Positions 25,576 through 62,219 of a stretch of DNA of 64,000 nucleotides are shown here, piece by piece; position 1 is the first letter of the stretch; each line of letters starts with the position of its first letter. Below the pieces are notes generated by a model, which made no database searches, was not told the DNA's origin, and was given only the letters and a program-made list of their open reading frames with translations. Both the position numbers and the translations under genes were made by a program. The DNA is from an uncultured beta proteobacterium (GTDB lineage Bacteria; Pseudomonadota; Gammaproteobacteria; Burkholderiales; Casimicrobiaceae). The DNA is taken from NCBI GenBank assembly GCA_963768535.1, contig CAVYID010000010.1:28132-92131 (forward strand), in the 5' to 3' direction.

Positions 25576-26378
25576 GTGCTGATCGCCCAAATCACCGACA
25601 CCCACGTCCGCGCGCCAGGCGAGCTTGCCTTCGGCGGGCAAGTCGACACCAACGCCCGGCTCGCGGGGGCAGTACGGTTGCTTTGCCGGCTCGATCCCCG
25701 TCCCGATGTGGTTCTTGCCACCGGCGACCTGGCAGACACCGGGCATCCGGACGAGTATGCGCAGCTGCAAGCGCTGCTGGCGCAGCTCGACATGCCCGTT
25801 CTTCCGATTCCCGGCAATCACGATGCGCGCGGGCCGCTGCGCGACGCCTTTCCCGGCCTATGGGACCGGGCGCCCGGCGAGTACGTCCAGTACGTGGTCG
25901 AGGACTATCCGCTCCGTCTGGTCGCCCTCGACACGCTGGTGACCGGACAATCCGGCGGCAGGCTTTGTCCCGCGCGTTTGGCCTGGATCGACGCTGCGCT
26001 CGCCCAGTCGACGCGGCCAACGGTGCTGTTCATGCACCATCCGCCGTATGAGTACGGCGCCGCACCGAATCCCGACATGAGCTGCGAAGGGGCGGACGCC
26101 CTTGCCCGCCTGGTCGCGCCCACGGCAACGTCGCCGCGGTGCTGTGCGGGCACCTGCACCGCTTCACGCTGACGCCGTGGGCCGGTACCGTCGCCTTAAC
26201 GGCGCCCGCGACCGCTCCGGCGCTGGAACTCAATCTCCACGGGCGGCACCCGAAGGGATGGCTCGACGGCCCGCCGATGATGGGGCTGCACCTGTGGCGC
26301 GGGGCGGCCGGGCTCGTGAGCCACGTGATGGCGGCGGACGAGCCGGAGATTCCGCGGTCGTTCACTAGGCCGAAGTAA
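25576..26378 (+). CDS. metallophosphoesterase, CpdA-like cyclic-nucleotide phosphodiesterase; frame broken once
   Basis: GTG start, then VLIAQITDTHV, ATGDLADTG, IPGNHD and LFMHHPP in ORF 25489..26172, then NVAAVLCGHLHR in ORF 26139..26378. About two extra bases near 26117. Confidence 0.75.
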
Positions 26379-26462
26379 ACCGGCCCGCGGGCTGACCTGA
26401 CGCGGCTGGGGAACGACCGCCGGCGGCCTGCGGGTGAACGTGGCGGCGGCGCGCGTGAATAT

Positions 26463-26555
26463 TGGCGGAGACGAAGGGATTCGAACCCTTGATGCAGTTT
26501 TTGACCGCATGCTCCCTTAGCAGGGGAGTGCCTTCGACCTCTCGGCCACGTCTCC
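26463..26555 (-). tRNA. tRNA-Ser (anticodon GCU)
   Basis: The reverse strand reads GGAGACGTGGCCGAGAGGTCGAAGGCACTCCCCTGCTAAGGGAGCATGCGGTCAAAAACTGCATCAAGGGTTCGAATCCCTTCGTCTCCGCCA. Long variable arm; anticodon loop CTGCTAA. Confidence 0.93.
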
Positions 26556-26633
26556 GGAAAACGTTCGATTGTACCGGCGAAAGCTTCGCCGGGTCAAACG
26601 AAGCTTCTCGAAAATCTCTGGAAAAACCGCAAG

Positions 26634-27898
26634 TTAGGGCCGCGCCCCGGCGGTGGCCACCGGCGGCTTGTCGAGCTCGAACACCTTGTGCAGCACCCGC
26701 ACCGCGAGCTCGAGGTACTTCTCGTCGAACACCACGGAGATCTTGATCTCGGAGGTCGAGATCATCTGGATGTTGATGCCCTCCTCGGCCAGCGTGCGGA
26801 ACATCTTGCTCGCGAGCCCGACGTGCGAGCGCATGCCGATGCCGACCACCGACACCTTGCAGATCCGGTCGTCGCCGATGATGTCGCGCGCCTTGAACGA
26901 CCTTGCCGTTCTCGCGGGCGAGCACGTCGAGCGCCTTGCGGTACTCGGTGCGGTTGACGGTGAACGAGAAGTCGGTGTGCCCGCGAGGCGCCGATGTTCT
27001 GCACGATCATGTCGACGTCGATGTTCGCGTCGGCGATCGGCCCGAGGATCGCGTACGCGATGCCGGGCTTGTCCTCGACGCCCATCAGCGAGATCTTGGC
27101 TTCGTCGCGGGTGAATGCAATGCCGGAAATGATCGCCTGTTCCATGCTGTGGTCTTCCTCGAACGTGATCAGCGTGCCGGGTGAGCGTCACCATCGGGTC
27201 CTCGAGCGAGGACAGCACGCGCAGCTTGACCTGGTACTTGCCGGCGAACTCCACCGACCGGATCTGGAGCACCTTCGAGCCGAGGCTCGCCATCTCCAGC
27301 ATCTCCTCGAAGGTGACGCGGTCGAGGCGGCGCGCCTCGGGCACGATCCGCGGGTCGGTCGTGTAGACGCCGTCGACGTCGGTGTAGATCTGGCACTCGT
27401 CGGCGCCGAGCGCGGCGGCCAGCGCGACGCCGGAGGTGTCCGAGCCGCCGCGGCCGAGCGTGGTGATGTTGCCCTCCTCGTCGACGCCCTGGAAGCCGGC
27501 GACGATGACGATCGTGCCCGCCTCCAGGTCGGCGCGCATGTTGTCCTCGTCGATGCTGAGGATGCGCGCCTTGGTGAACGCGTTGTCGGTCAGGATCCGG
27601 ACCTGGCCGCCGGTGTAGCTCTTGGCCTTGTGGCCCATCTCCTCCAGCGCGATCGCGAGCAGGCCGATCGTCACCTGCTCGCCGGTGGCCGCGACCACGT
27701 CGAGCTCGCGCGGATCGGGGCTGGCGAGAGTTCCTTCGCCAGCGCCAGCAGGCGGTTGGTCTCGCCGGCCATCGCCGACACGACGACGACGACCTGGTGG
27801 CCTTCGCGATGGAAGCGCGCGACGCGGCGCGCGACGTTCTTGATGCGGTCGGTGCTGCCGACCGAGGTGCCGCCGTATTTCTGGACGATCAGGGCCAT
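26634..27898 (-). CDS. lysC: aspartate kinase; reading frame broken at four sites (five extra bases)
   Basis: [15 protein letters not shown]...[11 protein letters not shown], ..[50 protein letters not shown], the ACT region [34 protein letters not shown], and the tail [42 protein letters not shown]. The segments lie in different frames. Breaks near 27720 (two bases), 27180, 26983 and 26895. Confidence 0.9.
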
Positions 27899-27941
27899 TG
27901 CGGGTGCCGTGCTGCGGGTGGGCGTTGCGCCGGGCGCCGCG

Positions 27942-29181
27942 TCAGAGCGCGCGGAACACCAGCGTCGCGTTGGTGCCGCCGAAGCCGAACGAGTTCGACA
28001 TCGCGGCGCGGATTTCCATCGGGCGCGCAGTGAGCGGCACGAAATCGAGGTCGCATCTGGGGTCGCGGTCGACGAGGTTGGTCGTCGGGGGCGCCACCTG
28101 GTCGCGGATCGCGAGCACCGAGAAGACCGCCTCGATCCCGCCGGCGCGCGCCGAGCAGGTGACCCGTCATCGACTTGGTCGACGACACCGCGAGCCGGTC
28201 GGCGTGGTCGCCGAAGCAGCGCCGCATGGCCGCGCGTCTCGGCGATGTCGCCGAGCGGCGTCGACGTGCCGTGGGCGTTGATGTACTGGATGTCGTCGAG
28301 GTTCATCTGCGCGTTCTTCAGCGCGTTGGCCATGCTGCGCGCGGCGCCGCGCCCGTCTTCGGGCGGCGCGGTGATGTGGTGCGCATCGGCGCTCATGCCG
28401 AAGCCCGCGAGCTCGCAGTAGATCCGCGCGCCGCGCGCCTTCGCGTGCTCGTACTCCTCGAGCACCAGCACGCCCGCGCCTTCGCCGAGGACGAAGCCGT
28501 CGCGGCCGGCGTCCCAGGGCCGGCTGGCGGTGGCCGGATCGTCGTTGCGGTGCGACAGCGCGCGCGCCGCGCAGAAGCCGCCGACGCCGAGCGGGCTGAC
28601 GGTCGCCTCGGCGCCGCCGGCGACCATCACGTCGGCGTCGCCGTACTCGATCAGCCGCGCGCCTTCGCCGAGGCTGTGGTTCGCCGTCGTGCAGGCGCTG
28701 ACCAGGGCCAGATTCGGCCCCTGGTAGCCGTAGTGGATCGACACGTGGCCCGAGATCATGTTGATGATCGAGCCGGGCACGAAGAACGGCGAGATCTTGC
28801 GCAGGCCGCCCTCGAGGTAGTGCTGCTTGGTCTCCTCGATCATCGGCAGCCCGCCGATGCCCGAGCCGATGCACACGCCGACCCGCTCGCGGTCGCCCGC
28901 GTAGTCGGCGAGGCCGGCGTCGGCGACCGCCTCCATCGTCGCCGCCAGGCCGTAGTGCGTGAACGCGTCGTAGCGGCGCGCCTCCTTCGCCGACAGGTAC
29001 TTGCCGACGTCGAAATCCTTGACCTCGCCGGCGATCCGCGACGGGAACGCCGAGGCGTCGAAGCGGGTGATCGGGCCGATGCCCGAGCGGGCCGCGAGGA
29101 TCGACTCCCAGCCGTCGCCACGCCGATGCCCACGGGCGAGACGATGCCCATCCCGGTGACGACGACGCGGCGTCGGGTCAT
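27942..29181 (-). CDS. fabF: 3-oxoacyl-ACP synthase II; frame broken three times
   Basis: [18 protein letters not shown].., ..[12 protein letters not shown].., [26 protein letters not shown] and the tail [18 protein letters not shown]. Breaks near 29117, 28230 and 28147. Confidence 0.9.
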
Positions 29182-29619: not shown

Positions 29620-30373
29620 TCACGCCATGTACATGCCGCCGTTGACGTGGATCGTCGCCCCGGTGACGTAGCCCGCGCCGGCCGAGGCGAGAAACGCCAC
29701 GACGCTGGCGATGTCCTCCGGCGCGGCCAGCCGGCCGAGCGGAATCTGCTGCAGCAGCTTCTCCCGCTGCGCCTCGGGCAGCGCCCGGGTCATGTCGGTG
29801 TCGACGAATCCCGGCGCCACGCAGTTGACGGTGATGTTGCGGCTGCCCACTTCCTGCGCCAGCGACTTGCGTGAAGCCGATCAGCCCGGCCTTCGCCGCC
29901 GCGTAGTTGGCCTGGCCGGCGTTGCCGCTCGAGCCGACCACCGAGGCGATCTGGATGATCCGGCCGTGGCGCGCCTTCATCATCCCGCGCAGCACGGCCT
30001 TGGCCAGCCGGAAGGCGGGCCTGAGATTGGTCGCCATGATCTCGTCCCACTCGTCGTCCTTCATGCGCACCAGCAGGTTGTCGCGGGTGATGCCGGCGTT
30101 GTTGACGAGGATGGTGACGGCGCCGAAGCGGGCCTCGATGTCGGCGAGCGCCGCGTCGACCGCCGCGGCGTCGGTCACGTCGAGCTGCAGCCCGGTGCCG
30201 CGGTGCCCGCCTTCCTGCAGGCAGCCGGCGATCGCCGCGGCGCCGTCGCCGGTGGTCGCGGTGCCGACGACGGTGGCGCCGTCGCGCGCGAGGGCGACGG
30301 CGATGGCGCGGCCGATGCCGCGCGTCGCCCCGGTGACCAGCGCGACCTGCCCTTCCAGCGTCGACTCAGCCAT
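29620..30373 (-). CDS. fabG: 3-oxoacyl-ACP reductase; frame broken once
   Basis: [23 protein letters not shown] and [11 protein letters not shown] in the first frame, then [18 protein letters not shown]...[13 protein letters not shown] in ORF 29620..29850. Extra base near 29870. Confidence 0.9.
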
Positions 30374-30404: not shown

Positions 30405-31348
30405 TCAGCGGCCGGTGACGCCCAGCTCGGCCAGCGCGGCGTCGATGGCCGCGCTGTCGACGAGCGCCAGCGACGCGAGGTCGGGGACGATCCGCTTCGA
30501 CAGCCCCGCGAGCACCTTGCCCGGCCCGCATTCGACCACGTGGGTCACCCCGCGCGCGGCCAGCGCCTGGATCGTCTCCACCCAGCGCACCGGGCTCGCG
30601 GCCTGCTGCGCCAGCGCGGCGCGGATGTCGTCCGGCGCCGGCCGTTCCCGCACGTCGACGTTGTGCAGCACCGGCAGCGCCGGCGCGGCGACCGGCACTT
30701 CGGCGAGGCGCGCGGCGAGACGCGCCGCCGCGGGCTTCAGCAGCGAGCTGTGGAACGGCGCGGACACCGGCAGCAGCACCGCGCGCTTGGCGCCGCGGGC
30801 CTTGGCGGCGGCGCACCGCGCGCTCGACCGCCTCCCGGTGGCCGGCGATGACGACCTGGTTGGGCGCGTTGAAGTTGACGGGCTCGACGCTCTGTCCCTG
30901 CGCGGCGTCGGCGCAGGCGGCGGCCACGCCGGCGTCGTCGAGCCCCAGCACCGCCGCCATGGCGCCCACGCCCGCCGGCACCGCCTCCTGCATCGCCTGC
31001 GCCCGAAAGCGCACCAGCGGCAGCGCGTCGCGGAAGCTGAGCGCGCCGGCGGCGACCAGCGCCGAGTACTCGCCCAGGCTGTGGCCGGCGACCAGCGCCG
31101 GCGCGGCACCCCCGGCGGCCACCCACGCCCGCCAGCACGGCGACGCCCGCGGCGAGCATCACCGGCTGGGTGTTGACCGTCTGGTTGAGCGCGTCCGCGG
31201 GGCCGTCCTCGATCAGCGCCCACAGATCCTGCCCGAGCACGCCGGAGGCCTCGTCGATCGTCGCGCGGACGGCCGGATGCGACGCGTAGTCGGCCAGCAT
31301 GCCCACCGACTGCGAGCCCTGGCCTGGAAACACGAATGCGAACGTCAT
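30405..31348 (-). CDS. fabD: malonyl-CoA:ACP transacylase; frame broken twice
   Basis: [48 protein letters not shown]. Three frames are used, with breaks near 31136 and 30818. Confidence 0.9.
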
Positions 31349-31358
31349 CGCCGTATCC

Positions 31359-35007: not shown

Positions 35008-35752
35008 ATGCCCACGCCGCCTTCCCGCGCGGGCGCGCCGTCGCCCGGTCGCCTGTACCTGGTGCCGAACCTGCTGGGGATCGTGCCGCCGGAGGACGTG
35101 CTGCCGGCACGAACGCTCGCCGTCGCGCGGCGGCTCGGGCATTTCGTCGTCGAGAACGCCAAGCCGGCGCGGCTGTTCCTGAAGACGCTGGGCGCCGCGT
35201 GCCCGCTGCAGCAGCTCGCCATCGCCGAGCTCGGCGAGCGCCCGACGCCGCAGCGCTGCGCCGAGTTGCTGGGGCCGGCACGCGCTGGCGCGGATCTGGG
35301 CCTGCTCTCCGATGCGGGCTGCCCGGGCGTCGCCGATCCCGGGGCACTGCTCGTTGCCGCCGCGCACCGCGAAGGGATCGTCGTCGTGCCGCTGGTCGGG
35401 CCGTCGGCGATCCTGCTGGCGCTGATGGCCTCGGGGATGAACGGCCAGGGCTTCGCGTTCCACGGCTATCTGCCGGTCAAGGCCGGACGCGCGCGGCGAC
35501 GCGATCCGGCGGCTCGAGGCGGCGTCGCAGCGCGACGGCTCGGCGCAGCTGTTCATCGAGACGCCCTATCGCAACGCCGCGCTGATCACCGCGCTGGTCG
35601 CGACCTGCCGGCCCGGCACGCGGCTGTGCGTCGCGGCCGACCTGACCACCGCCACCGAGTCCGTCGAGTCGCGCGAGATCCGCGCCTGGCGGGGCCGCGA
35701 TCCCGGCGCCTACGCGCGGCGGCCGGCGATGTACGTGCTGCAGGCGTCGTGA
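35008..35752 (+). CDS. SAM-dependent methyltransferase of the tetrapyrrole-methylase (RsmI-like) superfamily; frame broken once
   Basis: RLYLVPNLLG, LLSDAGCPGVADPG, VPLVGPSAILLALMASGMNGQGFAFHGYLP, then (after an extra base near 35485) QLFIETPYRNAALI...RPAMYVLQAS*. Confidence 0.7.
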
Positions 35753-36690: not shown

Positions 36691-38058
36691 TCAGCTCGCG
36701 CCGCGCTCCTGCGCCTGCGCCCAGTCCACGAGCCAGCGCGCGGTGCGCAGCAGCCGCGCATCGTCGCCGCGGCGCCCGACGAGCTGGATCCCCATCGGCA
36801 TCCCGTTGTCCGCGCTCAGCAGCGGCAGCGTCACCGCCGGCATGCCGGCAAAGGTCCACAGCGTGCAGAACGCCGGGCTGCCCGTCGACTCGAGGCCGTG
36901 CGGCGCCGGGCCTGCCGTCGCCGCGGTGAGGATCGCGTCGCAACGGTCGAACAGCTCGTCGAACGCGAGCCCCACCGCGCGGATCCTGCGCGACCGCGTT
37001 GTTGTAGTCGACGGCCGTCACCCGCCGCCCGCGCTCGAGCTGGCCCGCGCAGCGACTCGCTCAGCCGGTCGCGACCGCGCTCGTAGAGCTCGTGGTAAGT
37101 TGCGGGCGAGATCGGCCTCCATGATCGTGGCGTGCCATTGCCACGCGTCGTGGAAGACCGACGGCACCTCGAAGGCGAACGACTGCTCGCCCAGCGCCTG
37201 CCCGACCTCGTCGAAGGCGAGCCGCATCTGCTCCTCGGCGTCGTCCCAGTTCGGCGTCTTCGTGAACGCGAACACCGGCGGCAGCGGCGGCTCCTGCAGC
37301 GCCACCGCGCGCAGGTCCGGCCTGCGCGATCGGCCTCGTGTCCGGATCGCGCTCGTCGTATCCCATCAGCGGCTCGGCGATGATCGCGAGGTCCTCGACC
37401 GTGCGCGCGATGAAGCCCACCTGATCCAGCGGCCGCGATTGCTCGAGGATGCCGTGGCGCGGCACCAGGCCGAAGGTCGGCTTGTAGCCGTAGACGCCGC
37501 AATAGGCCGCGGGGCGGATCACGCTGCCGTTGGTCTGCGTGCCGAGCGCCACCGGGACCATGTGCGCCGCGACCGCGGCCGCCGATCCGCTCGACGAGCC
37601 GCCCGGCGTGTGCTCCGGGATTGTGCGGATTGCGCGTCTTTCCCGGTGCGTAGGTGGCGAGCTCCGTGCGTGACCGTCTTGCCGAGGATGATCGCGCCCG
37701 CCGAGCGCAGCCGCTCGACGACCGTCGCGTCGAAATCCGGGCGCCGTCCCGCGTGCAGCACGGTGCCGTCCTCGGTCGGCATGTCCGCGGTGTCGATGAT
37801 GTCCTTGACGCCCACGGGCAGCCCGTGCAGCGGGCCCAGCGCGTGGCCCTCGCGGCGCACGCGGTCGACGTTGCGGGCCTGGTCCAGCGCGCGCTCGTCG
37901 TCGACGAAAGCCCAGGCCTGCACGCGCGGCTCGTCGGCGCGGATCCGCGCCAGGCACCCCTGGACGAGCTCTTCGGCGCTGGTGCGGCCCTCGCGCAGCG
38001 CGGCGAGCGCCTGCGCCGCGGTGAGCGAGGTGATGTCGACGAGATCGTCAGCCTTCAC
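36691..38058 (-). CDS. amidase (amidase-signature family); reading frame broken six times
   Basis: GTG start VKADDLVDITS.., LHGLPVGVKDIIDTADMPT, GGSSSGSAAAVAAHMVPVALGTQTNGSVIRPAAYCGVYGYKPTFG, and the tail FAGMPAVTLPLL...GIQLVGRRGDDARLL. The pieces are spread over ORFs 37519..38058, 37061..37957, 37018..37305, 36831..37502 and 36691..36975. Extra bases near 37665, 37616, 37319, 37098, 37046 and 36986. Confidence 0.8.
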
Positions 38059-38073
38059 GCCGCGTCCTCTGCG

Positions 38074-39423
38074 TCAGTTGCCGTAGAACACGTTCGGCAG
38101 CCAGTAGACGAGCTGCGGAAACACGTAGACCAGGAACATCGTCACGAACACCATGGTCGAGGAACGGGAAGCAGCCGCGGAAGATCGTCCACAGCTGCAC
38201 GTAGGGCGGGGCGATGCCCTTCAGGTAGTACGCCGACATCGCCATCGGCGGCGAGAGGAACGAGGTCTGCAGGTTGAGCGCCACCAGGATCCCGAAGAAC
38301 AGCGGATCGACGCCGAAGTGGGGCAGCAGCGGCAGGAAGATCGGGACGAAGATGATGATGATCTCGCTCCACTCCAGCGGCCAGCCGAGCAGGAAGATGA
38401 TGACCTGCGACAGCAGCAGGAAGGTGATCGGCGTCAGATTGCATCGCCGAGCACGAAATCCTTGATCAGGCTTTCGCCGCCGAGATAGGAAAAGATCGAC
38501 GAGAAGGTCCACGAGCCGACGAACAGCCAGCAGACCATCGCCGAGGTGCGCGCGGTGAGGAACACGGCCTCCTTGAGCCGCCCCCAGCTGAACGCCCGGT
38601 AGCCGATGGCGAGCAGCATCGCGCCCAGCGCGCCGATCGCGGCGGCCTCGCTCGGGGTGGCGAGCCCGAACAGGATCGCGCCGAGCACCGACATGATCAG
38701 CACGGCGAGCGGGAAGAACGCCTGCAGCAGCAGCAGGACCACCTTGGCCCAGGGGACGTCGGTCTCTTCCTTGGGCAGCTTGGGCGCGAGCTTCGGGTTG
38801 ATCGCCGTGCGCGTGATCACGTAGGCCACGTACAGGCTGGCGAGCAGGAAGCCGGGAATGATCGCCGCCGCATACAGCTTGACCACGGACACCGCCGAGG
38901 TCGCGCCGTAGACGATCAGCATGATCGACGGCGGGATCAGGATGCCCAGCGTGCCGCCGGCGCAGATCACGCCGGAGGACAGCTTCTGGTCGTAGCCGGC
39001 CTTGAGCATCGCCGGGAACGCGAGCAGGCCCATCAGCGTCACCACCGCGCCGACGATGCCCGTCGCGGTCGCGAACAGCGCGCAGGTGATCAGCGCCGCG
39101 ACCGCCATCGCGCCGGGAATCGCCCGGAGCGCGACCTGCAGGCTGTAGAACAGGCGGTCGAGGATGTTCGATCTCTCTATCATGTAGCCCATGAACAGGA
39201 ACAGCGGCACCGCCGTCAGCACGTCGTTGTTCATGATGCTGAAGGTGTTCTGCGACAGCAGGTAGAACACCCGGCTGTCGAAGAACTCCTGCCCGGGCAC
39301 GTAGTAGGCGTAGTAGCCGAACATGACCCCCATCGCCATCAGCGTGAACGCGATGGGGAACCCCAGCAGGATGATGAAGATGAAGCTGCCCAGCATCAGC
39401 AGCGCGAGCTCGGGATTGGTCAT
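38074..39423 (-). CDS. TRAP transporter large permease subunit; frame broken at two sites
   Basis: ORF 38434..39423 carries the N-terminal 329 aa. LTPITFLLLSQVIIFLLGWPLEWSEIIIIFVPIFLPLL follows in ORF 38048..39454. The last 30 aa (TMVFVTMFLVYVFPQLVYWLPNVFYGN*) are in the third frame. Breaks near 38441-38446 and 38158. Confidence 0.85.
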
Positions 39424-40010
39424 TTGGCACCTTCCGCCGAGGCCTGCTGCTCATGCTCGTGCTGGATCATGGTCTCGAGCTCTTCGACGTCGTGGAGCTG
39501 TCGCGGCCAGCGCCCGGTCCGGATGCACAGGATGCAGCGGATCACCTGCGCGATGCCCTGGATGAACAGCATCCCGCCGGCGAGCGGGATCAGCGCCTTG
39601 AGCTGCCAGATCGGCACGCCCACCGGACTGTTGACGCTCACCTCCTTGTAGCCGAAGGAGTCGTGCGCGTAGCCGTATCCGGCGATGATCAGCGCGGTGA
39701 CGCCGGGATAGAAGAAGATGAAGTACAGCACCAGCTCGATGGTTGCCTGGATGCGCGGCCGCAGCAGCCGGAACAGCACGTCGCCGCGGACGTGGGCGTT
39801 GCGCGACAGCGCGTAGGCGCCCGACATGATGAACAGTCCGCCGTAGAGGATGTAGCTCATGTCGAACGCCCAGCTGGTGGGATTGTTCAGGACGTAGCGC
39901 ATGAAGACCTCGTAGGAGGTCCCCAGCGTCAGGATGAGGATGCACCACGCGAAGGCATGGCCGACGGCCATGCTGAAGCGGTCGATGCTGATCAGGAATG
40001 TCTGAAGCAT
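39420..40010 (-). CDS. TRAP transporter small permease subunit
   Basis: Intact 196-aa ORF with four hydrophobic segments. Its stop overlaps the large-subunit start. Confidence 0.85.
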   Translation of the reverse strand: MLQTFLISIDRFSMAVGHAFAWCILILTLGTSYEVFMRYVLNNPTSWAFDMSYILYGGLFIMSGAYALSRNAHVRGDVLFRLLRPRIQATIELVLYFIFFYPGVTALIIAGYGYAHDSFGYKEVSVNSPVGVPIWQLKALIPLAGGMLFIQGIAQVIRCILCIRTGRWPRQLHDVEELETMIQHEHEQQASAEGAK

Positions 40011-40057
40011 GGCGATTGCTCCTCAGGGCGGCGTCCGGGCGGATCTCACGGTTCGGC

Positions 40058-40088
40058 AAAAAAAAGGCGGCGCATCGCTGCGCCGCCT
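40058..40088 (-). terminator. rho-independent terminator between the TRAP binding-protein gene and the permease genes
   Basis: The minus strand reads GGCGGCGCAgcgaTGCGCCGCC followed by TTTTTTTT. Confidence 0.65.
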
Positions 40089-40130
40089 CCGATAGAGACA
40101 CTTCACGCGCCGCGGGGCCGGCGCAGTCCA

Positions 40131-41301
40131 TCAGAAGCCGAGCTTGCCGTAACAGGTGCTCGTACGCCTGCTTGTAGTCGGCGTTGTTGAAGAAGTAGTA
40201 GTAGCCGACGCGCTTGGCCCACGCCTTCTGCGATTCCCAGACCTTCTCGAAGAACGGGTCTTCGTCGGAGAGCTTCTTGACGAGCACGTCCCAGGCCTTG
40301 AGCTGCGCGGCGAAGATGTCCTTGCGGCGTGCGCAGGACGTGGACATGGTCCTTGTCCTTGAGCTCCTGCAGGTCCATGCGAGTACTTGTCCATGGCCAG
40401 CGCGTAGTTCGACGTCGACGCCGCCTCCGCCGCGTACCGCAGGATCACCTGCAGATCCTTGGGCAGCGATTCGTACTTCTTCTTGTTGAAATCGATCTCG
40501 AAGAACTCCATGCGCCTGGTGGTAGCTGCCCATATAGTAGTACTTCGCCACGTCCTGGGCGCCGAAACGGCGTGTCCGAGGTCGGGTTGTTGAACTCGAA
40601 GGCGTCGATCACGCCGCGCTCCATCGCCGGCACGATTTCGCCGCCCGGCAGCTGCGTGACCTTCATGCCCATGTTCCTGCATCAGGTCGGCCGCCAGGCC
40701 CACGGTGCGGTACTTGAAGCCCTTGAGGTCGGCGGCGCCCTTGATCGGCTTCTTGAACCAGCCCAGCGGCTGCGTCGGCATCGGCATGGCGAAGAACGCC
40801 GACCACGTCGAGGCCCGAGCTTCTTCGACGAGCTCGTCGTAGAACGGCATGCCCTCGCTGTGGATCCAGGCGAGCATCTGGTTGGCGTTGCAGCCGTTGA
40901 CCGGACCGGAACCGAACAGCGAGGCGACCTTGCTCTTGCCGTACCAGTACACGGCAACGGTGTGCGCCGCGTCGATCACGCCCTTGCTGGTGGCGTCCAT
41001 CACCTCGAACGGCTTCACGACCGAGCCGGCGACGAGGTAGTCGATGCGCAGGCGCGCCGCCCGCCATCTCGTTGACGCGCGTGACGTACTGCTCGGCCAT
41101 CTCGTTGAAGATGTCCTTCGCGCCCCACGCGCCCTGCATCTTCAGGACGATCGGCGACTGAGCGACGGAGATCATCGGGAAGCCGAGAGTCGCAGCGCCC
41201 GCGGCCGCGCCAGACGCGGCCTTGAGGAACTTGCGGCGCGGGCTGGTGGCCTGCGGCGCGGCGGGTTGCACTTGCACGGGTGCTTTTTCGATGTTCTTCA
41301 T
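40131..41301 (-). CDS. TRAP transporter substrate-binding protein with twin-arginine signal; frame broken seven times
   Basis: MKNIEKAPVQVQPAAPQATSPRRKFLKAASGAAAGAATLGFPMISVAQ (Tat signal). Then LKMQGAWGAKDIFNEMA.., KPFEVMDATSKGVIDAAH.., MGMKVTQLPGGEIVPAMERGVIDAFEFNNPTSD, AKYYYMGSYHQ, MEFFEIDFNKKKYESLP, DLQELKDKDHVHVLRTP, KDIFAAQLKAWDV.., and the tail YGKLGF*. Extra bases near 41055, 40676, 40564, 40513, 40380, 40325 and 40151. Confidence 0.85.
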
Positions 41302-42551: not shown

Positions 42552-44311
42552 TCAGGGCACGCGCTTTATCGAATCCGGCCGGATCCGGGCGTCGAATCGG
42601 GCAATGGTGTCGCGCACGAACGGCTCGCCGCGGAATTCCGCCTCCGCCTTCGCCTTCTGGTCGGCGCGCTCGCGGCGACCCTGCTCGGCCAGCGAAGCGT
42701 CGGCGGCGGCGAGTTCGAAGGTCAGCCGCAGCCTGGCGCCGGTCGCGTTCTCGAGCGCCGCCTTGAGCTTGTCGGCGTACGCCTTCTCGGTCAGGTGGCG
42801 CCGCGCCTCCGGCACGCACAGCACCAGGTCGCGCCCGCTCGCGCGCACGAGCGCGGATTCCGCGGCGAGCTGGCCGGCGATGCCGCCGAGGCCGAGGCTG
42901 GCGACGAACCCAGGCCATTCTGCCGGCTCGGTGGGCAGCGCCACGGCGCCGGCCCGCAAGGCTGCCTCAGCGACGGTCGGGGTTTCCGCACCCGTTCGCA
43001 CCGGCTCGGTGGGTGCGGCTCGGTGGGTGCGGCCTCGGTGAGCGCCGGCGCGGAACGAAGTGCCGCGGTGCCGGTGGGTCCCGTGCGTACGGTCTCGGTG
43101 CGTGCCGGCGCGGTGTCCGCCGACCCGGCGCGTACCGGTCCGGCATTTCCGGGGGTCGGCCGCGCGGGTCGGGTCGCGGGCGCGACCCGGGGCGTTTCGC
43201 CGGTGGGGGACGACCGCTGCGGCTCGCCGCCGGGCTCGAAAGCGAGCAGGCGCAGCAGCGTCATCGCGAAGCCGGTCGCCTCGTCGGGCGCGAGTGCGAG
43301 GTCGGCGCGACCCTGCACGCAGATCTGGTAGGCGAGCTGCACGGACTCGGGCGCGAGCGTCGCGGCGTACGCGGCGACCTGCCCGCCGTCGGACATCGTC
43401 TCGGCGGCCCCGGCGACCGCCTGCTCCGTGGCGATCCGATGGAACAGCGACGCGAGCTCGTCGAGCGCGGACGAAAACCCGATGCTGCGCGCCGCGATCG
43501 CGTCGGCCTCGGCGAGCAGCGCCGGGCCGTCGGCGCGCGCCAGCGCGTCGACGATCCGGTAGACGTGCTCACGGTCGACGGCGCCCAGCATTTCGCGCAC
43601 CGCGTCCTCGCGCACCTCGCCGCTGCCGTAGGCGATGGCCTGGTCCAGCAGCGACAGCGCGTCACGCATCGAACCCTGCGCGGCGCGCGCGATCAGGGCC
43701 AGCGCCGACGCGTCGCCGGCGATGTTCTCCGCGGCGAGGATCGCGCCCAACCGCTCGCCGATGAGCGCCGCCGGCAGCTGCTTCAGGTTGAACTGCAGGC
43801 AGCGCGAGAGCACCGTGACGGGAATCTTCTGCGGGTCCGTCGTCGCCAGCACGAACTTGACGTGCTCGGGCGGCTCCTCGAGCGTCTTCAGCATCGAGTT
43901 GAACGCCTGCTTCGACAGCATGTGCACTTCGTCGATCAGGTAGACCTTGTAGCGGCCGACCGTCGGCGCGTAGCGCGCGTTGTCGAGGATGTCGCGCATG
44001 TTGTCGATGCCGGTGTTCGACGCCGCGTCGAGCTCCAGCAGGTCGACGAAGCGGCCGGCGTCGATGTCGGTGCACGCGGCGCAGGTCCCGCAGGGCGTCG
44101 CGGTCACGCCATGGGTCATGCAGTTGAGGCTCTTGGCCAGGATGCGCGCAATCGTCGTCTTGCCCACGCCGCGGGTCCCCGTGAGCAGGTAGGCGTGGTG
44201 CAGCCGGCCGCGGGACAGCGCGTTGGTCAGCGCCTGGACCACGTGCCCCTGCCCGGCGAGCTCGCCGAACGTCTTCGGCCGCCACTTGCGGGCGAGAACC
44301 TGATAGGTCAT
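42552..44311 (-). CDS. dnaX: DNA polymerase III subunits tau/gamma; frame broken by a 14-bp tandem duplication
   Basis: MTYQVLARKWRPKTFGELAGQGHVVQAL..GTRGVGKTT..CGTCAACTDIDAGRF..YLIDEVHMLS in ORF 42791..44770. The C-terminal domain (WPGFVASLGLGGIAGQLAAESALV...) is in ORF 42552..43001. The two frames join exactly if one copy of ggctcggtgggtgc (43003-43016 and 43017-43030) is removed. Confidence 0.9.
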
Positions 44312-44796: not shown

Positions 44797-47655
<2,859 letters not shown>

Positions 47656-47705: not shown

Positions 47706-49026
47706 TTACGAGTCGTCGTCGCGCGCCTTCCGGTCCTGCGCGCGCAGCCATTCGAGCCGCTCGCGGATCTTCGCCTCCAGCCCCCGCTCGGTCGGCGCAT
47801 ACCAGCGACGGCTCGGGCATTCCGTCGGGAAAGTAGCGCTCGCCGGCGGCGTAGGCGCCCGCCTCGTCGTGCGCATAGCGGTAGCCCTTGCCGTAGTCGA
47901 GGTTCTTCATCAGCCGGGTCGGCGCGTTGCGCAGCCGCAGCGGCACCGGCCGCGAGCCGTCCTCGGCGATGAACGCGCGGGCGGCACCGTAGGCGGCGTA
48001 CACGGCGTTGGACTTCGGCGCGCAGGCGAGATAGACGACCGCCTCGGCCAGCGCCAGCTCGCCCTCCGGCGTTCCCAGCCGCTCGTAGACCGCCACCGCG
48101 TCCAGCGTCAGCGCCAGCGCGCGCGGATCGGCGAGCCCGATGTCCTCGCTCGCCATGCGGATCAGCCGCCGGCCGACGTAGAGCGGGTCGGCGCCGCCGT
48201 CGAGCATCCGGCACATCCAGTACAGCGCCGCGTCGGGATTGCTGCCGCGCACCGACTTGTGCAGCGCCGAGATCTGGTCGTAGAACGCTTCGCCGCCCTT
48301 GTCGAAGCGGCGCAGCGAGCGCGCGATCGTGGCCTCGACGAAGGCGAGGTCGATGGGCGTGGTCCGGTTCCCGCCGGCCGCGGTTCCGAGCTGCTCGACC
48401 ATGTTGATCAGGCGGCGGCCGTCGCCGTCGGCGTAGGCGATCACCGCCGCGCGCGCATCGGGGGCGACGGCCACCCCCGGCAGCGCGGCCGTCGCGGCGC
48501 GGTCGAAGAGCTCGCGCAGGTCCTCGGCCGTCAGCGGCTCGAGCACGTAGACGGCGGCGCGCGAGAGCAGCGCGCCGATCACCTCGAACGACGGGTTCTC
48601 GGTGGTCGCGCCGATGAACGTCACGAGCCCCTGCTCGACGAACGGCAGGAACGCGTCCTGCTGCGCCTTGTTGAACCGGTGCACCTCGTCGACGAACAGG
48701 ATGGTGTGGCGACCCGATTGCGCCAGCGTCGCCTCGGCGCGCGCCACCGCGTCGCGGATGTCCTTGACCCCCGACAGCACCGCCGACAGGGCGATGAAAT
48801 CGGCGCTGAACGCATCGGCCATCAGCCGCGCGAGCGTGGTCTTGCCCACACCCGGCGGGCCCCACAGGATCATCGAGTGCGGCTTGCCCGAGGCGAAGGC
48901 CACCGCCAGCGGCTTTCCCGGCGCGAGCAGGTGCCGCTGCCCGATCACCTCGGCGACGCTCTTCGGCCGCAGGCGCTCGGCGAGCGGCGCGGCCGGGTTG
49001 GACGCGGCAAACAGGTCGCTGGTCAT
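47706..49026 (-). CDS. rarA: replication-associated recombination protein A (AAA+ ATPase); frame broken once near the C-terminus
   Basis: LRPKSVAEVIGQRHLL, WGPPGVGKTTLA, LFVDEVHRFNKAQQDAFLP, ALHKSVRGSNPDAALYW. The last 40 aa (RWYAPTERGLEAKIRERLEWLRAQDRKARDDDS*) are in another frame. Extra base near 47809. Confidence 0.9.
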
Positions 49027-49053: not shown

Positions 49054-49691
49054 TCATTCGCCGACGACGTCGGCCCCCTTCGGCGGGACGAAACGGAACT
49101 GCGCCGCGTCGAGCGGCGGGTTGCGCTCGAAGGTGCCGAATTCCAGCGTGGTGAGATTGCCGAAGGCGTCGGTCAATTCCATCCGCCGCGGCAGGTTGTC
49201 GCGGAAGCCGATGCGCACGCGCTCGAAGCCCGTGTCCGCCGCCTTCGGCCGGGCATCGACGAACTCCAGCCCGTCGCTGCGGCCGGCGTCGACGAGGTCG
49301 AAGTTCTTCTCCAGTGCGTTGTCGCCGGCGAGCAGCGCCGCCGGGCTGCCGCCGAGCGCCACGTCGAGCGTGCGCACGATCACCTGGTTGAGGTCGCGGT
49401 CGTAGATCCACAGCTTGCCGCCGTCGCCGACGATCAGCTGCTCGTAGGGCTGCTCGTAGGCCCAGCGGAACCGGCCCGGGCGCTGGAACGTGAACGTTCC
49501 CGTCGATTCCTGCGCCGGCGACCGGCCGCGCGGGGCGACGGTCTGGCGGAAGGTCGCCTTGCCGCTGCTTGCGCCGCGGTGATGAACGCGTGGAGCTGGT
49601 CGAGGCCGGCGCCCTCGCCGGCGCTCGCCGCCGCGAGGCACAGCGCGCCGGCCAGCGCGCGCCAGCCGCGGCGGGTCAGCTGCCGGCCCAT
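49054..49691 (-). CDS. lolA: outer-membrane lipoprotein carrier protein LolA; frame broken once
   Basis: Signal peptide MGRQLTRRGWRALAGALCLAAASA, then GLDQLHAFITAA, then SGKATFRQTV..GTFTFQRPGRFRWAYEQPYEQLIVGDGGKLWIYD in ORF 49054..49641. About two extra bases near 49572. Confidence 0.85.
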
Positions 49692-50187: not shown

Positions 50188-53632
<3,445 letters not shown>

Positions 53633-53802: not shown

Positions 53803-54514
53803 ATGGCAAAACTCTCGGACCTCAGGAAGCTCGTCGACGCGGCCCGGGCGGCCGCGCCGGCTTCGTCCACGCCGCGCGCCGAACGGGACGAAGCCACCGG
53901 CCGTGCCGAGCGGCGCGCACGGCGGCGCGGCCCGGGCGGCACCACCCCCGCGCCGGAGCATCGCCGCGCAGAAGCACGCCACCGGCGACGTCGATCTGGC
54001 CGCGGCGTTCGCCGACGTGCGGCCGCTGCCGCCCAGCACCCGCGTCCGCCACGCGCCGCCGCGGCCCGCGCCCATTCCGACGCAGCGTCTCGCGGACGCG
54101 CGCGACGCGCTCGAAGCGTCCAAGTACGGGGCCGAGCCCGCGCCGAACACCTGGGACATCGGCCAGGAGCTCGAAGGCGAGCAGACGTTCGTCCGGCGCG
54201 GTCTCGGCGCCGACGTCCTGACCAAGCTGCGGCGCGGGCACTGGTCGGTGCAGGGCGAGCTCGACCTTCACGGGCAGACCTCGGTCGAGGCCCGCGACAC
54301 GCTGGCCGATTTCCTGGCCGAGGCGCGTCAGCACGGCTAGCGCTGCGTGCGCGTCATCCACGGCAAGGGCCTCACCTCGCCCAACCGCGAGCCGGTGCTG
54401 AAGGGCAAGGTGCGCAAGTGGCTGTCGCACTGGGACGACGTGCTCGCGTATTGCGAGGCGCCGCAGCACGCCGGCGGCGGCGGCGCGGTGCTGATCCTGC
54501 TGCGCGGGCGCTGA
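53803..54514 (+). CDS. Smr-domain protein; one frame break plus an in-frame TAG
   Basis: MAKLSDLRKLVDAA... in the first frame. Then DVDLAAAFADVRPLP...LDLHGQTSVEARDTLADFLAEARQHG*RCVRVIHGKGLTSPNREPVLKGKVRKWL...AVLILLRGR*. The Smr motifs (LDLHG, HGKG) lie on either side of the TAG at 54338-54340. Confidence 0.7.
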
Positions 54515-55462: not shown

Positions 55463-58400
55463 CTATCGACGCGGCGATTCCGGCAGCGCGGTCGCGGACA
55501 CCTCGCCCTCGCGCGTGACCACGGGATCGGACCAGCTGCCGGTCACGTCGTAGCCATAGCTGAACATCTGCTCGATCGGGTCGCTCAGCACCTTCTGCGC
55601 GAGCAGCGATCCGGCGCCCACCGCGGCGCCGACGAGTGGATTGGCGAACAGCAGCAGCATCGCCCCCGCCGAGACGCTGGACGAAAGCGCCGGCTGCACC
55701 CGCACGGTCAGGCGCTGCGTTTCCCGGGCGAGGTCGGCGCTGCCCGAAATGCTCACCTTCGCCGCCGGCCCCTCCAGCCGCAGATTATCGCTCATCAGCA
55801 CGCCGTTGCGGATCTGCACGTCGCCATTGATCTCGTCGAACGCGAAGCCGTCGGAGAAGACGTCGGTGAAGTCGAGCGTGATCCGGCGCGGCAGCGACTG
55901 CAGCGACAGCACGCCCAGCAGCTTGCCGATCCCCGGCTCGATCTTGGTGAATCGCCCGGGACCGACCTCGATCCGGAACGCGCCGGAGAGGGTCGGGTAG
56001 TCGAATTTGTTCGGGGCGCCGGCCCAGCCGAGCTGCCCCTTGATCGTGGTCGGCGCATTCTTCACCGCATCGGGATAGCCGACGCGCGACAGGAATCCGG
56101 CGGTGTCCTTCAACTCGACGTCGACGTCGAGCTGCGTCTGCTGGTCCGGGCCGGCAGAGCGCCACAGGCCCTCGGCCGCCACACGACCCCCGCTGTTGAC
56201 GAGCGTCATCCGGTCGATCCGCCAATCGGCGCGTTGCGGATGGGCGACGAATTCGAGCTGCCCGACGTCCCGGCCGCGCATGAAATAGCGGGCGGCGGCG
56301 ATGTCGATCGCGGGCCACGGGTTGGCCGCCCCGGCGGCCGGCTCGTCGGATCCGACGCTCGCCTCTTTCCATGGCTTCAGCTCCCCGGAATCCGGCGGAA
56401 CCAGCCGCGAAAGACGGGCCGACAGGCGTCCGTTCGGTGCGCCTGCGGAAGCCGCCGTCCATGTCGCGCTGCCGGCGAGCTCGCGCGCGTCGAGGTCGAG
56501 CCGCCAGTCGTGGTTCGACCGGCGGGCACCGACCTTGATCGCATGGAAGCGACGACCGAACGCTTCCAGCACGCCGACGTCGAGGTCGATGCCGTCGAGC
56601 GCGAGCTCGCCGTCGCCCCCCGCGCCCGGGGACGCGCGCCGCTGCAGCAGCAGCCAGTCGTCGAAATTGAACTGCGGCAACTCGCCGCGCACCCACACGC
56701 CGGGGCGCTCCGGGCGCGCGGACGGATCGGCCACGGCGGCGCTGCCCAGCAGCACCAGCGCACGGTCGACGGTGGTGCGCTCGCGCGCCCAGCTTGCGGT
56801 GCAGCAGCAGGCGGCCCACGTCGCCGTAGCGGATGGTCAGCGTGTCCTCGTCCGGCTGCGCCGGATCACCGCGACGCTCGATCTTGAGCGGAACCGCGTC
56901 GCCCGCGGGCTTGCCCAGCGGCGCCGGCAGATCGATGGCGCTGCCCTCCAGGCTGCTCTGCACCGTCCACGTCGAGCCCTCCCCCGTCATCGCGAGGTCC
57001 AGATTCCAGTCGAGCGTCCCCGACAGCGCATCGCCGTACGGCGGATCGAATTCGCGCCGCAGCGCCGCCGCCGTCGCGGCGCCGCTGCCGGTGACGCGGG
57101 TCCCGCCGGCGTCGGCGGCGATCGCGAACTGCGCCGGACCGCCCACCACGTTGACCGCCAGCGCGGGCGCGCGCACGCCGGACTCGGTGAACGTCAGCGT
57201 GCCGTTGACCTGCGACAGTCGCGGCAGGCCGGCGAAGCGCAGCTCGTTGTCGATGAACTGGAACTCGCCGGCGACCGTGTTGCCGCCCGGCGTGCCGAGC
57301 GGGATGCTGATCTTCAGGTCGAGTCGCCCGTCGCCGCTCACCTGCGCGTTTTCGGTCGCGTGTCCGATCCAGCCTGCGACCGGGCTTGCGTCGATGAAGC
57401 GCTGGAAGTCGACGGACGGACCGGCCGCCTTGCCGGCGATCACGAGCAACGGAAATTCCGCGCGCAGATCGCCGATCTCGGCATGGATTGCGCCCAAGGG
57501 CGCGTCGGCAACGCGGCCGCGCGCGGCCTCGATCGCCAGCCGCGTCCCGGCGAGGTCGACCTCGCCTTCGAGCTCCGACAAGGGCGGCCAGCCGGGCGCG
57601 TAATCGAGACCGACGCCGCGCGCCTTTCCGGTCACCGTGAACGTGCCGCCCTTGCCGTCGGCGAACGGAAACTGCGCCAGGTCTCCCGCCAGCCGGAGCC
57701 TGACGTCGGACGCGCTGCCGGCGGTCAGGCCGGTGCGCAGCCAGTCGCGCACGCCAGGCTCGACCGCACGCGGCAGGTAGCGGTGGATTCGCGTCACGTC
57801 GGCGCGCGTCAGGCGGGCATCGAGCTCGACCGCGCCCGGCCCCCTGGGCATCGTCCTGAAGGTTCCCGCGACGCTCCCGGCGGTGTCGCGATTGGCGAAC
57901 TCCAGCCGCTTGATGGCGATTGCGGTGCGCTCCGGGGTCCGCGTCCAGTTGACCGCGCCGGCAAGGCTGTCGAACGCGATGGGTCCGACGAAGACCCGCG
58001 GCAGCGTCAGCACCGCATTGCGACTCGCAATCGTCAGGTCGCCGGTCGTCTGGGTCATTTCCACGCGGCCGGTCAATCCCTCCACGCCCGGCATGCCGTC
58101 CTGCGCCGCGACCCCCAGGCCGCTGAATTCGCTCGCCGCGCTGAAGATCTCCGGCGTGTCGCCGCGTCCCTCCCACAGGAAGCGGCCGCGGGTCAGCGTC
58201 CCTTTCGGCGCGTACCGCGCGACGTCCGCGCGCACCCGCTCGGACAGCGGCAGACGCGCGAGCAGGTCGCGCAGCGGCCCGAGCTGCAGGCGATCGAACT
58301 CGACCAGTCCGGTGGCGGCGCCGCCGCCGGTCGCGCCGCGCAGCGTCACCTTGACGTCCGTCGGCTCCACGCGCTGCCCGTCGGCGGTCACGTAGGCGAG

Positions 58401-59399
58401 CGCGTGCGTCTGGAACTCGCGCCGCGGCGGGGCCTCGCGCCAGCTGCCGCGACCGGAGAGGCTGACGAGCGCGAGCTCGGGAAGATCGGCGCGGAGCTTC
58501 ATTTTCGCGTCAAGGAGCTCGACGTCGGCCACGGCCGCCGCGGGCTGCCCCTGCGCCAGGTCGAGCCAGAGCCGCAGCGCGCCGCTGCCGGTGGCGGTCG
58601 CCAACGGCAGCGGCACCCAGTCGGCCAGCGCCCCGATGTCCACGGCGTCGAGCCGGAGGTAAATCCTGCCGTTCGCCTGCCGCCAGGCGCCGGCCGGGCC
58701 CCGGCGGATGTCGCCGCGGACATCGATCGGCGCCGCCAGCGCCGCCGGCGGCGTGCCCCGCAGTCCGAACCGGTGGTGGCCGAAGCGGCTGTCAAGACGC
58801 AGCTGCACCTCTTCGACGACGAGCTGTGGCGCGTTGCGCAGGTCGTCGTTCCAGGTGATCACCGCATCGCGCACCTCGATGTGGGGCTGGCGCAGAATCC
58901 AGGCCGCGAGCGGCGCCTCGTCGCCGACGCGGGCCGGATCGACTTCCAGTCCGGCAGCGTGCAGGATGCCGGCCCGGTCGCGGCGGATCGCGACCCGCGG
59001 CCCGGCGAGCAGCAGGCTCTTCAGCCGCAGGTCGGCGAGCACCAGCGATGTCCACGCGACGACCATCTCCACCCGCGGCAGCGCGAGCAGCACGCCCGAT
59101 GCCGGCGTCGCGCCGCTGCGCACCCGCAAGCCGTGCACGACGATCTTGGGGTTCCAGCCGTCCCAGCCGGGTGTCAGCCGGTCGATCTCCACCGGCCGCT
59201 CGAGCTGCCGCGACAGCGCGGCGGCGACGTCGGCGCGATAGTCGTCCACGCGCGGGAAGGCGACGAAGCGCACCGCGAGCAGTGCCGTGCACAGCAGCGC
59301 CACCGCCACGACGATCGCAAGGCCGGCGGCGCTGGCGGCGCGCGCCACGACGGAACGCGGCGCGCGCCGGGCGCGAGGGGAAGCGCGCGGGGAAGGCAT
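55463..59399 (-). CDS. YhdP/AsmA2-family large inner-membrane-anchored protein; frame broken once
   Basis: About 1310 aa. N-terminal anchor AGLAIVVAVALLCTALLAV. Long beta-rich body. The conserved C-terminal region (FDYPTLSGAFRIEVGPGRFTKIEPGIGKLLGVLSLQSLPRRITLDFTDVFSDGFAFDEINGD) is in ORF 55463..56755. Extra base near 56786. Confidence 0.8.
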
Positions 59400-59494
59400 A
59401 ATGGACGGCGATTATCGCACCCTGACGGCGGTGGCCGGCCGGCCCGCGCGCTGCCCCGGTGCCGACCGACTCCGCCGAACCGGCACGACTTCCC

Positions 59495-62219
59495 ATGGCC
59501 TCCCCTGCCCCCCTCGCCTTCAGCCGCTACGCGACCGCGGCACTGGCCGCCCATCCCGCGGCCGCGGAGGCGCTGGCGGCGAGCATCGGCGCGCCGTACG
59601 ACTGGACCGCCGCGCAAGCCGATCTTGCCGCGCGCGTCGCGGCCGGCGACGCCGCCGAACTCGACGCAGCGCTGCGCCGGCTTCGCCGCGAGGTCCTGCT
59701 GCACACGCTCGCGCGCGATCTCGCCGGACGCGCGGACCTGATCGAAGTCTGCGCGGCGATGACGCGGCTGGCGGAGATTTCGCTTGGCGCGGCGCTGTCG
59801 CTGCACCACGCGGCGCTGGCCGCCGTCTGCGGCGAGCCGCTGGACGCCGACGGCGCCCCGCAGGCGCTGGTGATCATCGGCATGGGCAAGCTGGGCGGCG
59901 GCGAGCTCAACGTGTCCTCGGACATCGACCTCGTGTTCGCCTATCCCGACGACGGCGAGACCGCCGGCCCGCGCCCGCTCGCCAACCGCGAGTTCTTCGA
60001 CCGGCTGGGCCGGCGGGTGATCGGGGCGCTGGACGAGCGCACCGCCGACGGCTTCGTGTTCCGCGTCGACATGCGCCTGCGGCCCTACGGCGACAGCGGC
60101 CCGCTGACGGTGCCGTATTCCGCGCTCGAGCAGTACCTGGTGACGCAGGGGCGCGCCTGGGAGCGCTACGCCTGGCTCAAGGCGCGCAATCTCACCGGTG
60201 CGCGCCACCAGGAGATCGACGAGATCGTGACGCCGTTCGTCTACCGCAAGTACCTCGACTACGATGCCTACGAGGGCCTGCGCGACATCCACCGCCAGAT
60301 CCGCGCGCAGGGCCGGCGCCGCGATTACCAGCCGAACATCAAGCTCGGGCCGGGCGGCATTCGCGAGATCGAGTTCACCGTGCAGGCGCTGCAGCTGGTG
60401 CGCGGCGGACGCGAGCCGGCGCTGCGGGAGCGCGGGACGCTCCCGGCACTCGCGGCGCTCGCCGCCCGCGGCCTGCTGCCGGAATCGGCGGCGACGGGGC
60501 TGCGCGACGCCTACGTGTTCCTGCGCAACCTCGAGCACCGGCTGCAGTACCGCGACGATGCGCAGACGCAGACGCTGCCGGCCGCGGGTCCCGAGCGCGA
60601 CGCGCTGGCGCAGGCAATGGGCTTTCCCGACGTCGCGGCGTTTCGACGCGGCGCTCGGCGACCGGCGCGTCTTCGTCGAGGAGCAGTTCGCGGCGGTGTT
60701 CGGTCCGCCCGCGACGGACGCCGCCGCGCCGGGCGCGGGAATCGCCGCCGATGGCCTCGTCGAGCGGCTGGCCGCGGTCTGGCGCGGCGACGTCGGCCCG
60801 GAATCCGCGGTGGCCGCGCTCGGCGCCGCCGGCTTCGACGATCCCCCGGCCCTGGCGGCGACGCTGGAGCGCGTGCGCGCGAGCCCGCGCTACCTGCAGC
60901 TGCCGGTGCGCTCGCGCGGGCGCTTCGACGCGCTGCTGCCGCAACTGCTGGCCACCGCCGCCGCGGTGCCGATGCGCGGCGCCAGCGCGCAGGCGGTGTT
61001 CCTGCGCCTGCTCGACCTGCTCGAAGCCGTCAGCCGGAGAAGCGCCTACCTCGCGCTGCTGATCGAGCACCCGCCGCTGCTGCCGCGGCTGGCGCAGCTG
61101 ATGGGCCGTTCGGCCTGGGCCGCCGACTACCTGACCCGGCATCCGCTGCTGCTCGACGAACTGCTCGATGCGCGCGTGCTGCTCGCCGAGCCCGACTGGG
61201 GCGCCTGGCGGACCGAGCTCGCCGGCACGCTGGCCGCGCACGCCGGCGACCCCGAGCAGCAGATGGATGCGCTGCGCCACTTCAAGCACGCCCAGTCGTT
61301 CCGCCTGCTCGCGCAGGATCTCGCCGACCTGCTCACCGTCGAGCGTGTCGCCGATCACCTGTCGGCGCTGGCCGACACCATCGTCGCGGCGACCCTTGCG
61401 GAGATCTGGGCGCAGATCTCGGGGGCCGATGCCGCGCCACCGCGATTCGCGGTCGTCGGCTACGGCAGGCTGGGCGGCAAGGAACTGGGCTACCTCTCGG
61501 ACCTCGATCTCGTGTTCCTGTACGAGGACGACGACGAGCGCGCACCGGTGCGCTACGCCCGGCTCGCGCAGCGCATCGTCAGCTGGCTCACCACCACCAC
61601 CGCGGCGGGTCCGTTGTACGACATCGACCTGCGGCTGCGGCCCGACGGCGCGGCCGGCATGCTGGTCCTGCCCTTCGCCGCGTTCTGCCGCTACCAGCGC
61701 GACAAGGCCTGGACCTGGGAGCATCAGGCGCTGACCCGTGCGCGCTTCGTCGCCGGCGACCCGGCCATCGGCGCGGCGTTCGAGGCCGAGCGCGACGCGA
61801 TCCTCCGCCTGCCGCGCGAGCCCGCCGCGCTCGCCGCCGACGTCGTCGAGATGCGGCGCAAGATGCTGGCGGGGCACCCCAATCCGACGCCGCAGTTCGA
61901 TCTCAAGCACGATCCGGGCGGCATGGTCGACATCGAGTTCGCGGTCCAGTACCTGGTGCTGACGCACGCGCATGCCCACGCGCCGCTCACGCGCAACGCC
62001 GGCAACATCGCGCTGCTGGCGATGTGCGGGGAACTGGGCCTCGTGCCCGCGGCGATCGCGGCCGGCGCCGCCGACGCGTATCGCGACTACCGGCGAGCGC
62101 AGCACGAGATCCGGCTGACCGGCGCGCGGCACGCGCGCCTGCCGCCGGCATCGCAGGCCGCGCGGCGGGCGGTGGTCGCGGCGCTGTGGCGGCACGTGTT
62201 CGGCGCTCCGTGGGCATGA
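59495..62219 (+). CDS. glnE: bifunctional glutamine synthetase adenylyltransferase/adenylyl-removing enzyme; frame broken once
   Basis: Two nucleotidyltransferase modules (GMGKLGGGELNVSSDIDLVF...VDMRLRP and GYGRLGGKELGYLSDLDLVFLY...IDLRLRPDG). Extra base near 60644 (..FPDVAAF|DAALGDRRVF..). Confidence 0.9.

Follow-up and report, generated by a model that had tools for sequence, protein, structure and literature searches.

Insertion-type reading-frame breaks in core genes of a Casimicrobiaceae genome, very probably left by long-read consensus error

Results

Core genes of the window are spread over several reading frames

The window analysed here is the whole stretch of 64,000 nucleotides at G000:C10:28132-92131, part of a metagenome-assembled genome (MAG) of an uncultured Casimicrobiaceae bacterium. 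This genome, G000, has 4.08 Mb, 70% GC and 32 contigs, with a marker-gene completeness of 72.2% and a contamination of 0.66%. About 41 reading-frame breaks in core genes had been noticed from the letters alone between window positions 25576 and 62219, and the nature of these breaks is the subject of this work. The names given to the genes agreed with the Pfam domains found in them, which were AA_kinase+ACT, ketoacyl-synt, adh_short, Acyl_transf_1, TP_methylase, Amidase, DctM, DctP, DnaX, SBP_bac_3+SLT, SerRS, MgsA/RarA, LolA, FtsK, Smr, YhdP, GlnE and Metallophos. When open reading frames (ORFs) of relatives were compared with the window by tblastn, each named gene appeared as a chain of high-scoring segment pairs over two to five frames. 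The lysC ORF of the relative G007, for example, gave five such pairs in frames -1, -3, -1, -2 and -3, with junctions at 27720, 27185, 26983 and 26902.

The breaks were located by local frameshift-aware protein-to-DNA dynamic programming with explicit +1, +2, -1 and -2 moves. Stop-to-stop ORFs from six syntenic genomes of the same genus were used as references, followed by contigs of five further genomes (up to 11 in all), and an event was accepted when it was called by at least two reference genomes, these making up at least 70-75% of the genomes spanning the site. A seven-state, reference-free codon hidden Markov model (HMM), trained on G000 itself, was used in parallel, with a transition being counted where both ORFs overlapped the switch point. 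Frame tracing by ORF filters on codon-position GC content (GC3/GC1/GC2) alone was dropped as too noisy, and the homology alignment and the codon HMM were used instead.

By frameshift-aware alignment, 38 of the breaks were recovered, each lying no more than a few bases from its expected position: 32 single +1 events, two +2 events, two -1 events, a tandem duplication of 14 nt in dnaX and, in the cpdA-like gene, one event whose sign was undecided. The break listed at 40151, beyond which just 5-6 residues of DctP are encoded, stands outside this set.

In lysC (- strand), +1 events were found at 26898 (a C on the + strand, uniquely placed; 6/6 references), 26983-26984 (6/6) and 27185 (a G on the + strand, before CG; 8/8), together with a -1 event at 27718-27722 (8/8). 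The fab genes, also on the - strand, contained +1 events in fabF at 28146 (8/9 references) and 28236-28237 (9/9), in fabG at 29870 (9/9), and in fabD at 30814 and 31135 (6/6 each), and a -1 event in fabF at 29112-29116 (site 29114; 8/8). Further +1 events on this strand were located in serS at 46897-46898 and 47335-47336 (7/7 each), in rarA (MgsA) at 47805 (7/7), after which the following frame encodes the C-terminus, in ftsK at 51033, 51713 and 51991 (6/6 each) and in the yhdP-like gene at 56785 (5/5; Pfam YhdP), whereas lolA carried a +2 event at 49576-49582 (site 49579), the two extra bases being called by both references available (2/2), as originally proposed.

The amidase and the genes of a TRAP transporter, again on the - strand, were broken more often. 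As the amidase has no orthologues in most relatives, homologues from short-read MAGs of the species collection were used for it, giving +1 events at 36991 (from the six homologues reaching the site, which placed it at 36976-36991), 37046, 37098-37101, 37324, 37619 and 37668. The DctM permease gene had a +1 event at 38155-38157 (5/5 references) and a +2 event at 38442-38447 (site 38444; 6/6) that would be best interpreted as a pair of distinct single insertions, GGC g ATG c AAT. For the DctP binding protein, which was aligned to seven independent short-read references, +1 events were found at 40324 (7/7 short-read references) and 40376-40379 (short-read references), and at 40512, 40569-40573 (best 40570), 40673-40675 and 41055 with both same-genus and short-read references.

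On the + strand, +1 events were detected in the RsmI-like TP_methylase gene at 35483-35484 (9/9 references; Pfam), in a TTT run of glnE at 60641-60643 (6/6; Pfam GlnE), and in the poorly conserved N-terminal part of smr at 53869-53873 (3/3), and a net +1 was assigned to a poorly conserved linker of the MltF-like gene (SBP_bac_3+SLT) at 45130-45244, best at 45153 (7/9). The cpdA-like gene (Pfam Metallophos) had a phase change of +2/-1 at 26115-26119 whose sign was left undecided, as a G006 homologue of 47% identity gave -1 at 26117 and the codon HMM a shift of 2 at 26115. In addition to its frame break, smr contained an in-frame TAG at 54338-54340 (+), where four references had TAC, TAT or TTC. 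This is a substitution and not an indel, was missing from the original list, and lies in the context TA[G]CGC, resembling the insertion hot-spot described below.

The change of phase in dnaX (- strand) had a different origin. Tandem Repeats Finder detected a period-14 array of 2.7 copies with 96% matches at 43002-43040, and one added 14-nt copy, in agreement with the +14 proposed originally, accounts for the net +2 phase seen in 9/10 references. The array lies in a Pro/Thr/Glu-rich linker and is a duplication, unlike the other breaks; the extra copy may be either a genuine variant or an artefact of the consensus.

Most breaks are insertions

Single insertions greatly exceeded deletions (32 single +1 events vs. 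two -1 sites, binomial p < 1e-7), confirming the insertion bias that had been noted. The stronger statement that no break requires a deletion held with regard to phase, but probably does not apply to lysC 27720 and fabF 29114. There, 8/8 references hold one base more than the window, which reads CCA GC- CCC in lysC, compared to CCC AAC CCC in the relatives, and GCG AC- GGC in fabF. The peptides that had been restored at these two sites by removing two bases were one residue shorter than every orthologue. As all eight references have exactly one extra base with respect to the window, a 1-nt deletion is simpler than the gain of two bases plus the loss of one codon, and both sites are probably 1-nt deletions. 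The insertion:deletion bias is thus about 10:1 and not absolute.

A similar pattern was found over G000:C10:1-140000, of which about 63-65 kb were covered by at least two references. This stretch yielded 53-60 +1, 5-6 +2, 4-7 -1 and 1-2 -2 events, about nine per 10 kb, showing that the breaks extend past the window.

Conservation is maintained across the breaks

If the genes had been inactivated in a lineage undergoing genome decay, constraint would be expected to relax downstream of the breaks. Upstream of the first break, amino-acid identity to the best orthologue was 72.7%, compared to 73.2% downstream, and the successive segments of lysC (0.95/0.95/0.93/0.89/0.90) and ftsK (0.79/0.78/0.93/0.92) were conserved throughout. 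The TAG of smr was the one nonsense codon with multi-reference support in about 12,000 aligned codons. All breaks were private to G000, the orthologues being in frame at the same places, usually in all of the 2-9 references covering the site, and no break was common to any of the reference genomes aligned.

The rarA gene was also compared with a database of 5.8 billion proteins. The 120 best homologues listed had 406-478 aa and covered only about 90% of the window ORF, and right after 47805 the following frame encodes the C-terminal end of the best intact homologue (P0001). The best match of this search was 94% identical, and no independent assembly of the species was found by it.

Genuine recent pseudogenisation could claim that the breaks are present in the deposited sequence and that the nonsense codon in smr looks true. 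Bacterial indels are, however, biased towards deletions, opposite to the ratio found here, and the genes struck include the essential single-copy genes lysC, fabF, fabG, fabD, dnaX, serS, ftsK and lolA. Pseudogenes accumulate in bacteria that are restricted to a host or have specialised recently, for example Mycobacterium leprae or symbionts of the Sodalis type, and G000 resembles these in its many frameshifted genes. In those genomes, deletions, insertions, nonsense codons and insertion sequences (IS) are mixed, essential genes are spared, constraint is relaxed and part of the sites is shared; none of this applies here. In particular, the frameshift-aware alignment to orthologues did not reveal the mixture of deletions and insertions typical of decay. 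With the number of events that decay would have to explain in this 4-Mb, 70% GC genome, about 2,000 or more, we regard it as highly improbable.

The breaks are found throughout the genome

With the codon HMM, 1,985 frameshift-like transitions were detected; they affected 31 of the 32 contigs, all but C4 (7.8 kb). By phase, 1,470 of them were +1 vs. 514 that were +2/-1, a bias that persisted under stricter criteria, and their density was about five per 10 kb on average, ranging from 0 to 15 depending on the contig. Controls consisting of a complete genome of the order and of fragmented contigs of the same genus gave 0.4-0.7 calls per 10 kb, without bias. As the HMM recovered only 31/73 of the reference-based events, the true genome-wide count is higher.

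The presence of breaks depends on the type of assembly

Each relative was then taken as the target of the same alignment. Six MAGs in few contigs (8-40) were included, with 62-69 kb analysed apiece, and all six had private sites of their own with a bias towards +1, the +1:-1 ratio being 22:1 in G007, 21:4 in G010, 20:2 in G009, 16:2 in G005, 49:5 in G001 and 70:11 in G003. The density in few-contig MAGs was 3-16 per 10 kb. In contrast, the fragmented MAGs of short-read type G002, G004, G008 and G012 (360-500 contigs) showed one +1 event in 53 kb vs. 28 expected (P = 1.7e-11), and this lone event was paired with a -1 event 37 nt apart. The pattern, present in few-contig MAGs and nearly absent from fragmented ones, therefore follows the type of assembly and not the lineage, and genome decay accounts for neither the private set of each few-contig MAG nor the near absence of breaks from the fragmented MAGs of the genus.

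The same observation bears on recoding, by which the intact proteins would be produced through programmed +1 ribosomal frameshifting or transcriptional slippage. Nearly all shifts are indeed +1, and dnaX, like prfB, is among the genes for which programmed frameshifting is known in other bacteria, so that a frame change inside dnaX is reminiscent of these systems. However, the sequence contexts were heterogeneous, without a slippery motif or stop codon common to the sites, and the positions were conserved in no relative. The dnaX break itself is caused by the 14-nt tandem copy in its linker and has no slippery heptamer, in contrast to the programmed sites. The shifts also follow assembly type and not phylogeny, and we give recoding next to no credence.

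The densest breaks of all, 16 per 10 kb, were found in G003, whose contig G003:C9 matched CAVOHM010000009.1 of MFD09964.bin.2.42 (100% match). From this type of isolate name (MFD...bin) and a Flye-style contig name (contig_NNNN), G003 is a MAG of the Microflora Danica long-read catalogue, which was produced from Nanopore reads only, assembled with Flye and polished by one round of Medaka 1.8.0 (PMC12313526). The authors of that catalogue themselves sought Nanopore-associated errors by means of coding density (PMC12313526), and near-finished accuracy had earlier been reached by the same group at about 40x coverage (10.1101/2021.10.27.466057).

G007, in which the locus similar to the window lies on G007:C15, was rated 96% complete, yet 22 breaks by an extra base were counted in 66 kb of it, and its yhdP and glnE are split. 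A consensus-indel artefact can be masked by completeness scores.

Sequence context of the inserted bases

Inserted bases were placed by maximal nucleotide identity to all references, a procedure whose precision is limited by the relatives being only 70-85% identical. For G000, 51 +1 events were placed, of which 30 were unique and outside homopolymers, in line with the original observation that many are, 11 fell in runs of 2-4 nt and 10 were ambiguous. When seven MAGs were taken together, the inserted bases with a unique placement were G in 37 cases, C in 36, T in 22 and A in 17.

In G000, the base added was a G preceding CG, or the complement of this arrangement, in 16/30 of the uniquely placed insertions (p = 6.5e-7 vs. 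a null of 14%), and 11/30 created GCGC (p = 1e-7). The sister MAGs showed no excess of G before CG (14/82). An unbiased scan of 4-mers in G000 gave CGCA (p = 1e-4) and GCGC (p = 2e-3) over 136 tests; when the 4-mers around insertions were scanned in the seven few-contig MAGs, four of which had only 17-20 events, only the marginal CGCA of G000 survived correction for the 136 tests. GATC in G003 appeared suggestive by eye, but was rejected as it fell outside the top five of the scan.

Part of the insertions could then be systematic errors of basecalling or polishing tied to context, possibly to a methylated CGC/GCGC motif. The excesses of G before CG and of GCGC creation, absent in the sister MAGs, favour such a refinement of the artefact explanation, as does the sole nonsense substitution, which also creates TA[G]CGC. 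On the other hand, the pattern was noticed post hoc, the 4-mer enrichment is modest for the number of tests and the placement of each inserted base depends on relatives of limited identity, so that we consider the refinement rather unlikely. It is doubtful, to a greater degree, that the errors form a reproducible, organism-specific signature in which an extra G before CG(C) produces GCGC at a modification motif mishandled by the basecaller and polishing models then current. If they did, the frameshift contexts of public Nanopore MAGs could be mined for methylation motifs, and thousands of species-representative genomes could be corrected without reads.

Discussion

Origin of the breaks

The private nature of the sites, the conservation kept across them, their genome-wide extent and their dependence on assembly type support the technical, insertion-biased error that had been put forward as their cause. 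The breaks are very likely the product of long-read sequencing or consensus error and do not represent a biological feature. Judging from the sequence comparisons, basecalling or consensus generation would be the step at fault, and the actual genes of the organism would be intact.

The window would come from a MAG built from long, error-prone reads, most likely by a Nanopore-only procedure with a single round of polishing, such as that of Microflora Danica, whose long-read MAGs make up a large part of the Casimicrobiaceae-like genus concerned. Its consensus would have been under-corrected, probably through low coverage or a mixture of strains, leaving about one spurious base per kb. Each added base would shift the frame and lead gene callers to split or truncate the gene.

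Consensus indels that fragment genes are a known problem of Nanopore-only assemblies and MAGs, gauged by the IDEEL test (10.1101/2021.10.27.466057; PMC12313526). The breaks described here are similar to them in being private single-base indels that occur genome-wide, split conserved genes and lower marker completeness, and in being found in long-read MAGs but hardly in congeneric short-read MAGs. They differ from the cited papers, in which homopolymer indels are stressed, in that insertions prevail by about 10:1, mostly outside homopolymers, in DNA of 70% GC and with a preference for G before CG. A search of the literature returned nothing specific on an insertion bias of R10.4.1 reads with Medaka in GC-rich DNA.

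Several points weigh against an origin in consensus error. The classical Nanopore signature of bases missing from long homopolymers was not seen: there were no long homopolymers at the sites, and insertions in runs of 2-4 nt amounted to about 22%, compared to the 51% expected from random insertion. Moreover, the long-read origin of G000 itself is suggested by its contiguity and by its relatives. Finally, the amidase/TRAP cluster (36691-41301) makes up 12.6% of the span and holds 14-16 of the approximately 40 breaks (P between 1e-3 and 1e-4), and this roughly threefold density is more than uniform random error can explain without an added assumption, for example a locally lower coverage. The cluster is accessory, G003 being alone among the six syntenic relatives in carrying it, and the excess could plausibly stem from strain-variable DNA being less well covered there.

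Consequences for annotation

The significance of a consensus-error origin is practical, concerning annotation quality and not new biology, and the results amount to a warning on data quality. G000 is the sole representative of its species in the GTDB-based collection and carries about one false frameshift per kb. A large share of its genes, essential ones included, will be called pseudogenes or be cut into two or three pieces, with the result that counts of "novel" short proteins are inflated, completeness is lowered (72%) and metabolic reconstruction can mislead. The same applies to the sister few-contig MAGs tested. As the insertion bias is strong and an association with homopolymers is lacking, homopolymer-aware corrections would not repair these genomes.

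Other observations in the window

Outside the span 25576-62219, the codon HMM alone indicated frame switches of +1 type at about 2160 (-) and about 9546 (+), which suggests that the window is affected over its first 25 kb as well. Two "+2" calls of the HMM, at 23112 and 24786, were considered as deletions and rejected, since positions 23091-24842 are covered in a single frame, without a frameshift, by an intact orthologue from G010 and both calls sit at the ends of this span, as expected for ordinary gene boundaries. Some "+2" calls are therefore gene boundaries, and the "+2" class of the HMM overstates deletions. Lastly, a large IS transposase ORF at 10743-12852 (+) formed a single unbroken coding segment, unlike the adjacent single-copy genes, which would fit a higher coverage of multi-copy DNA.

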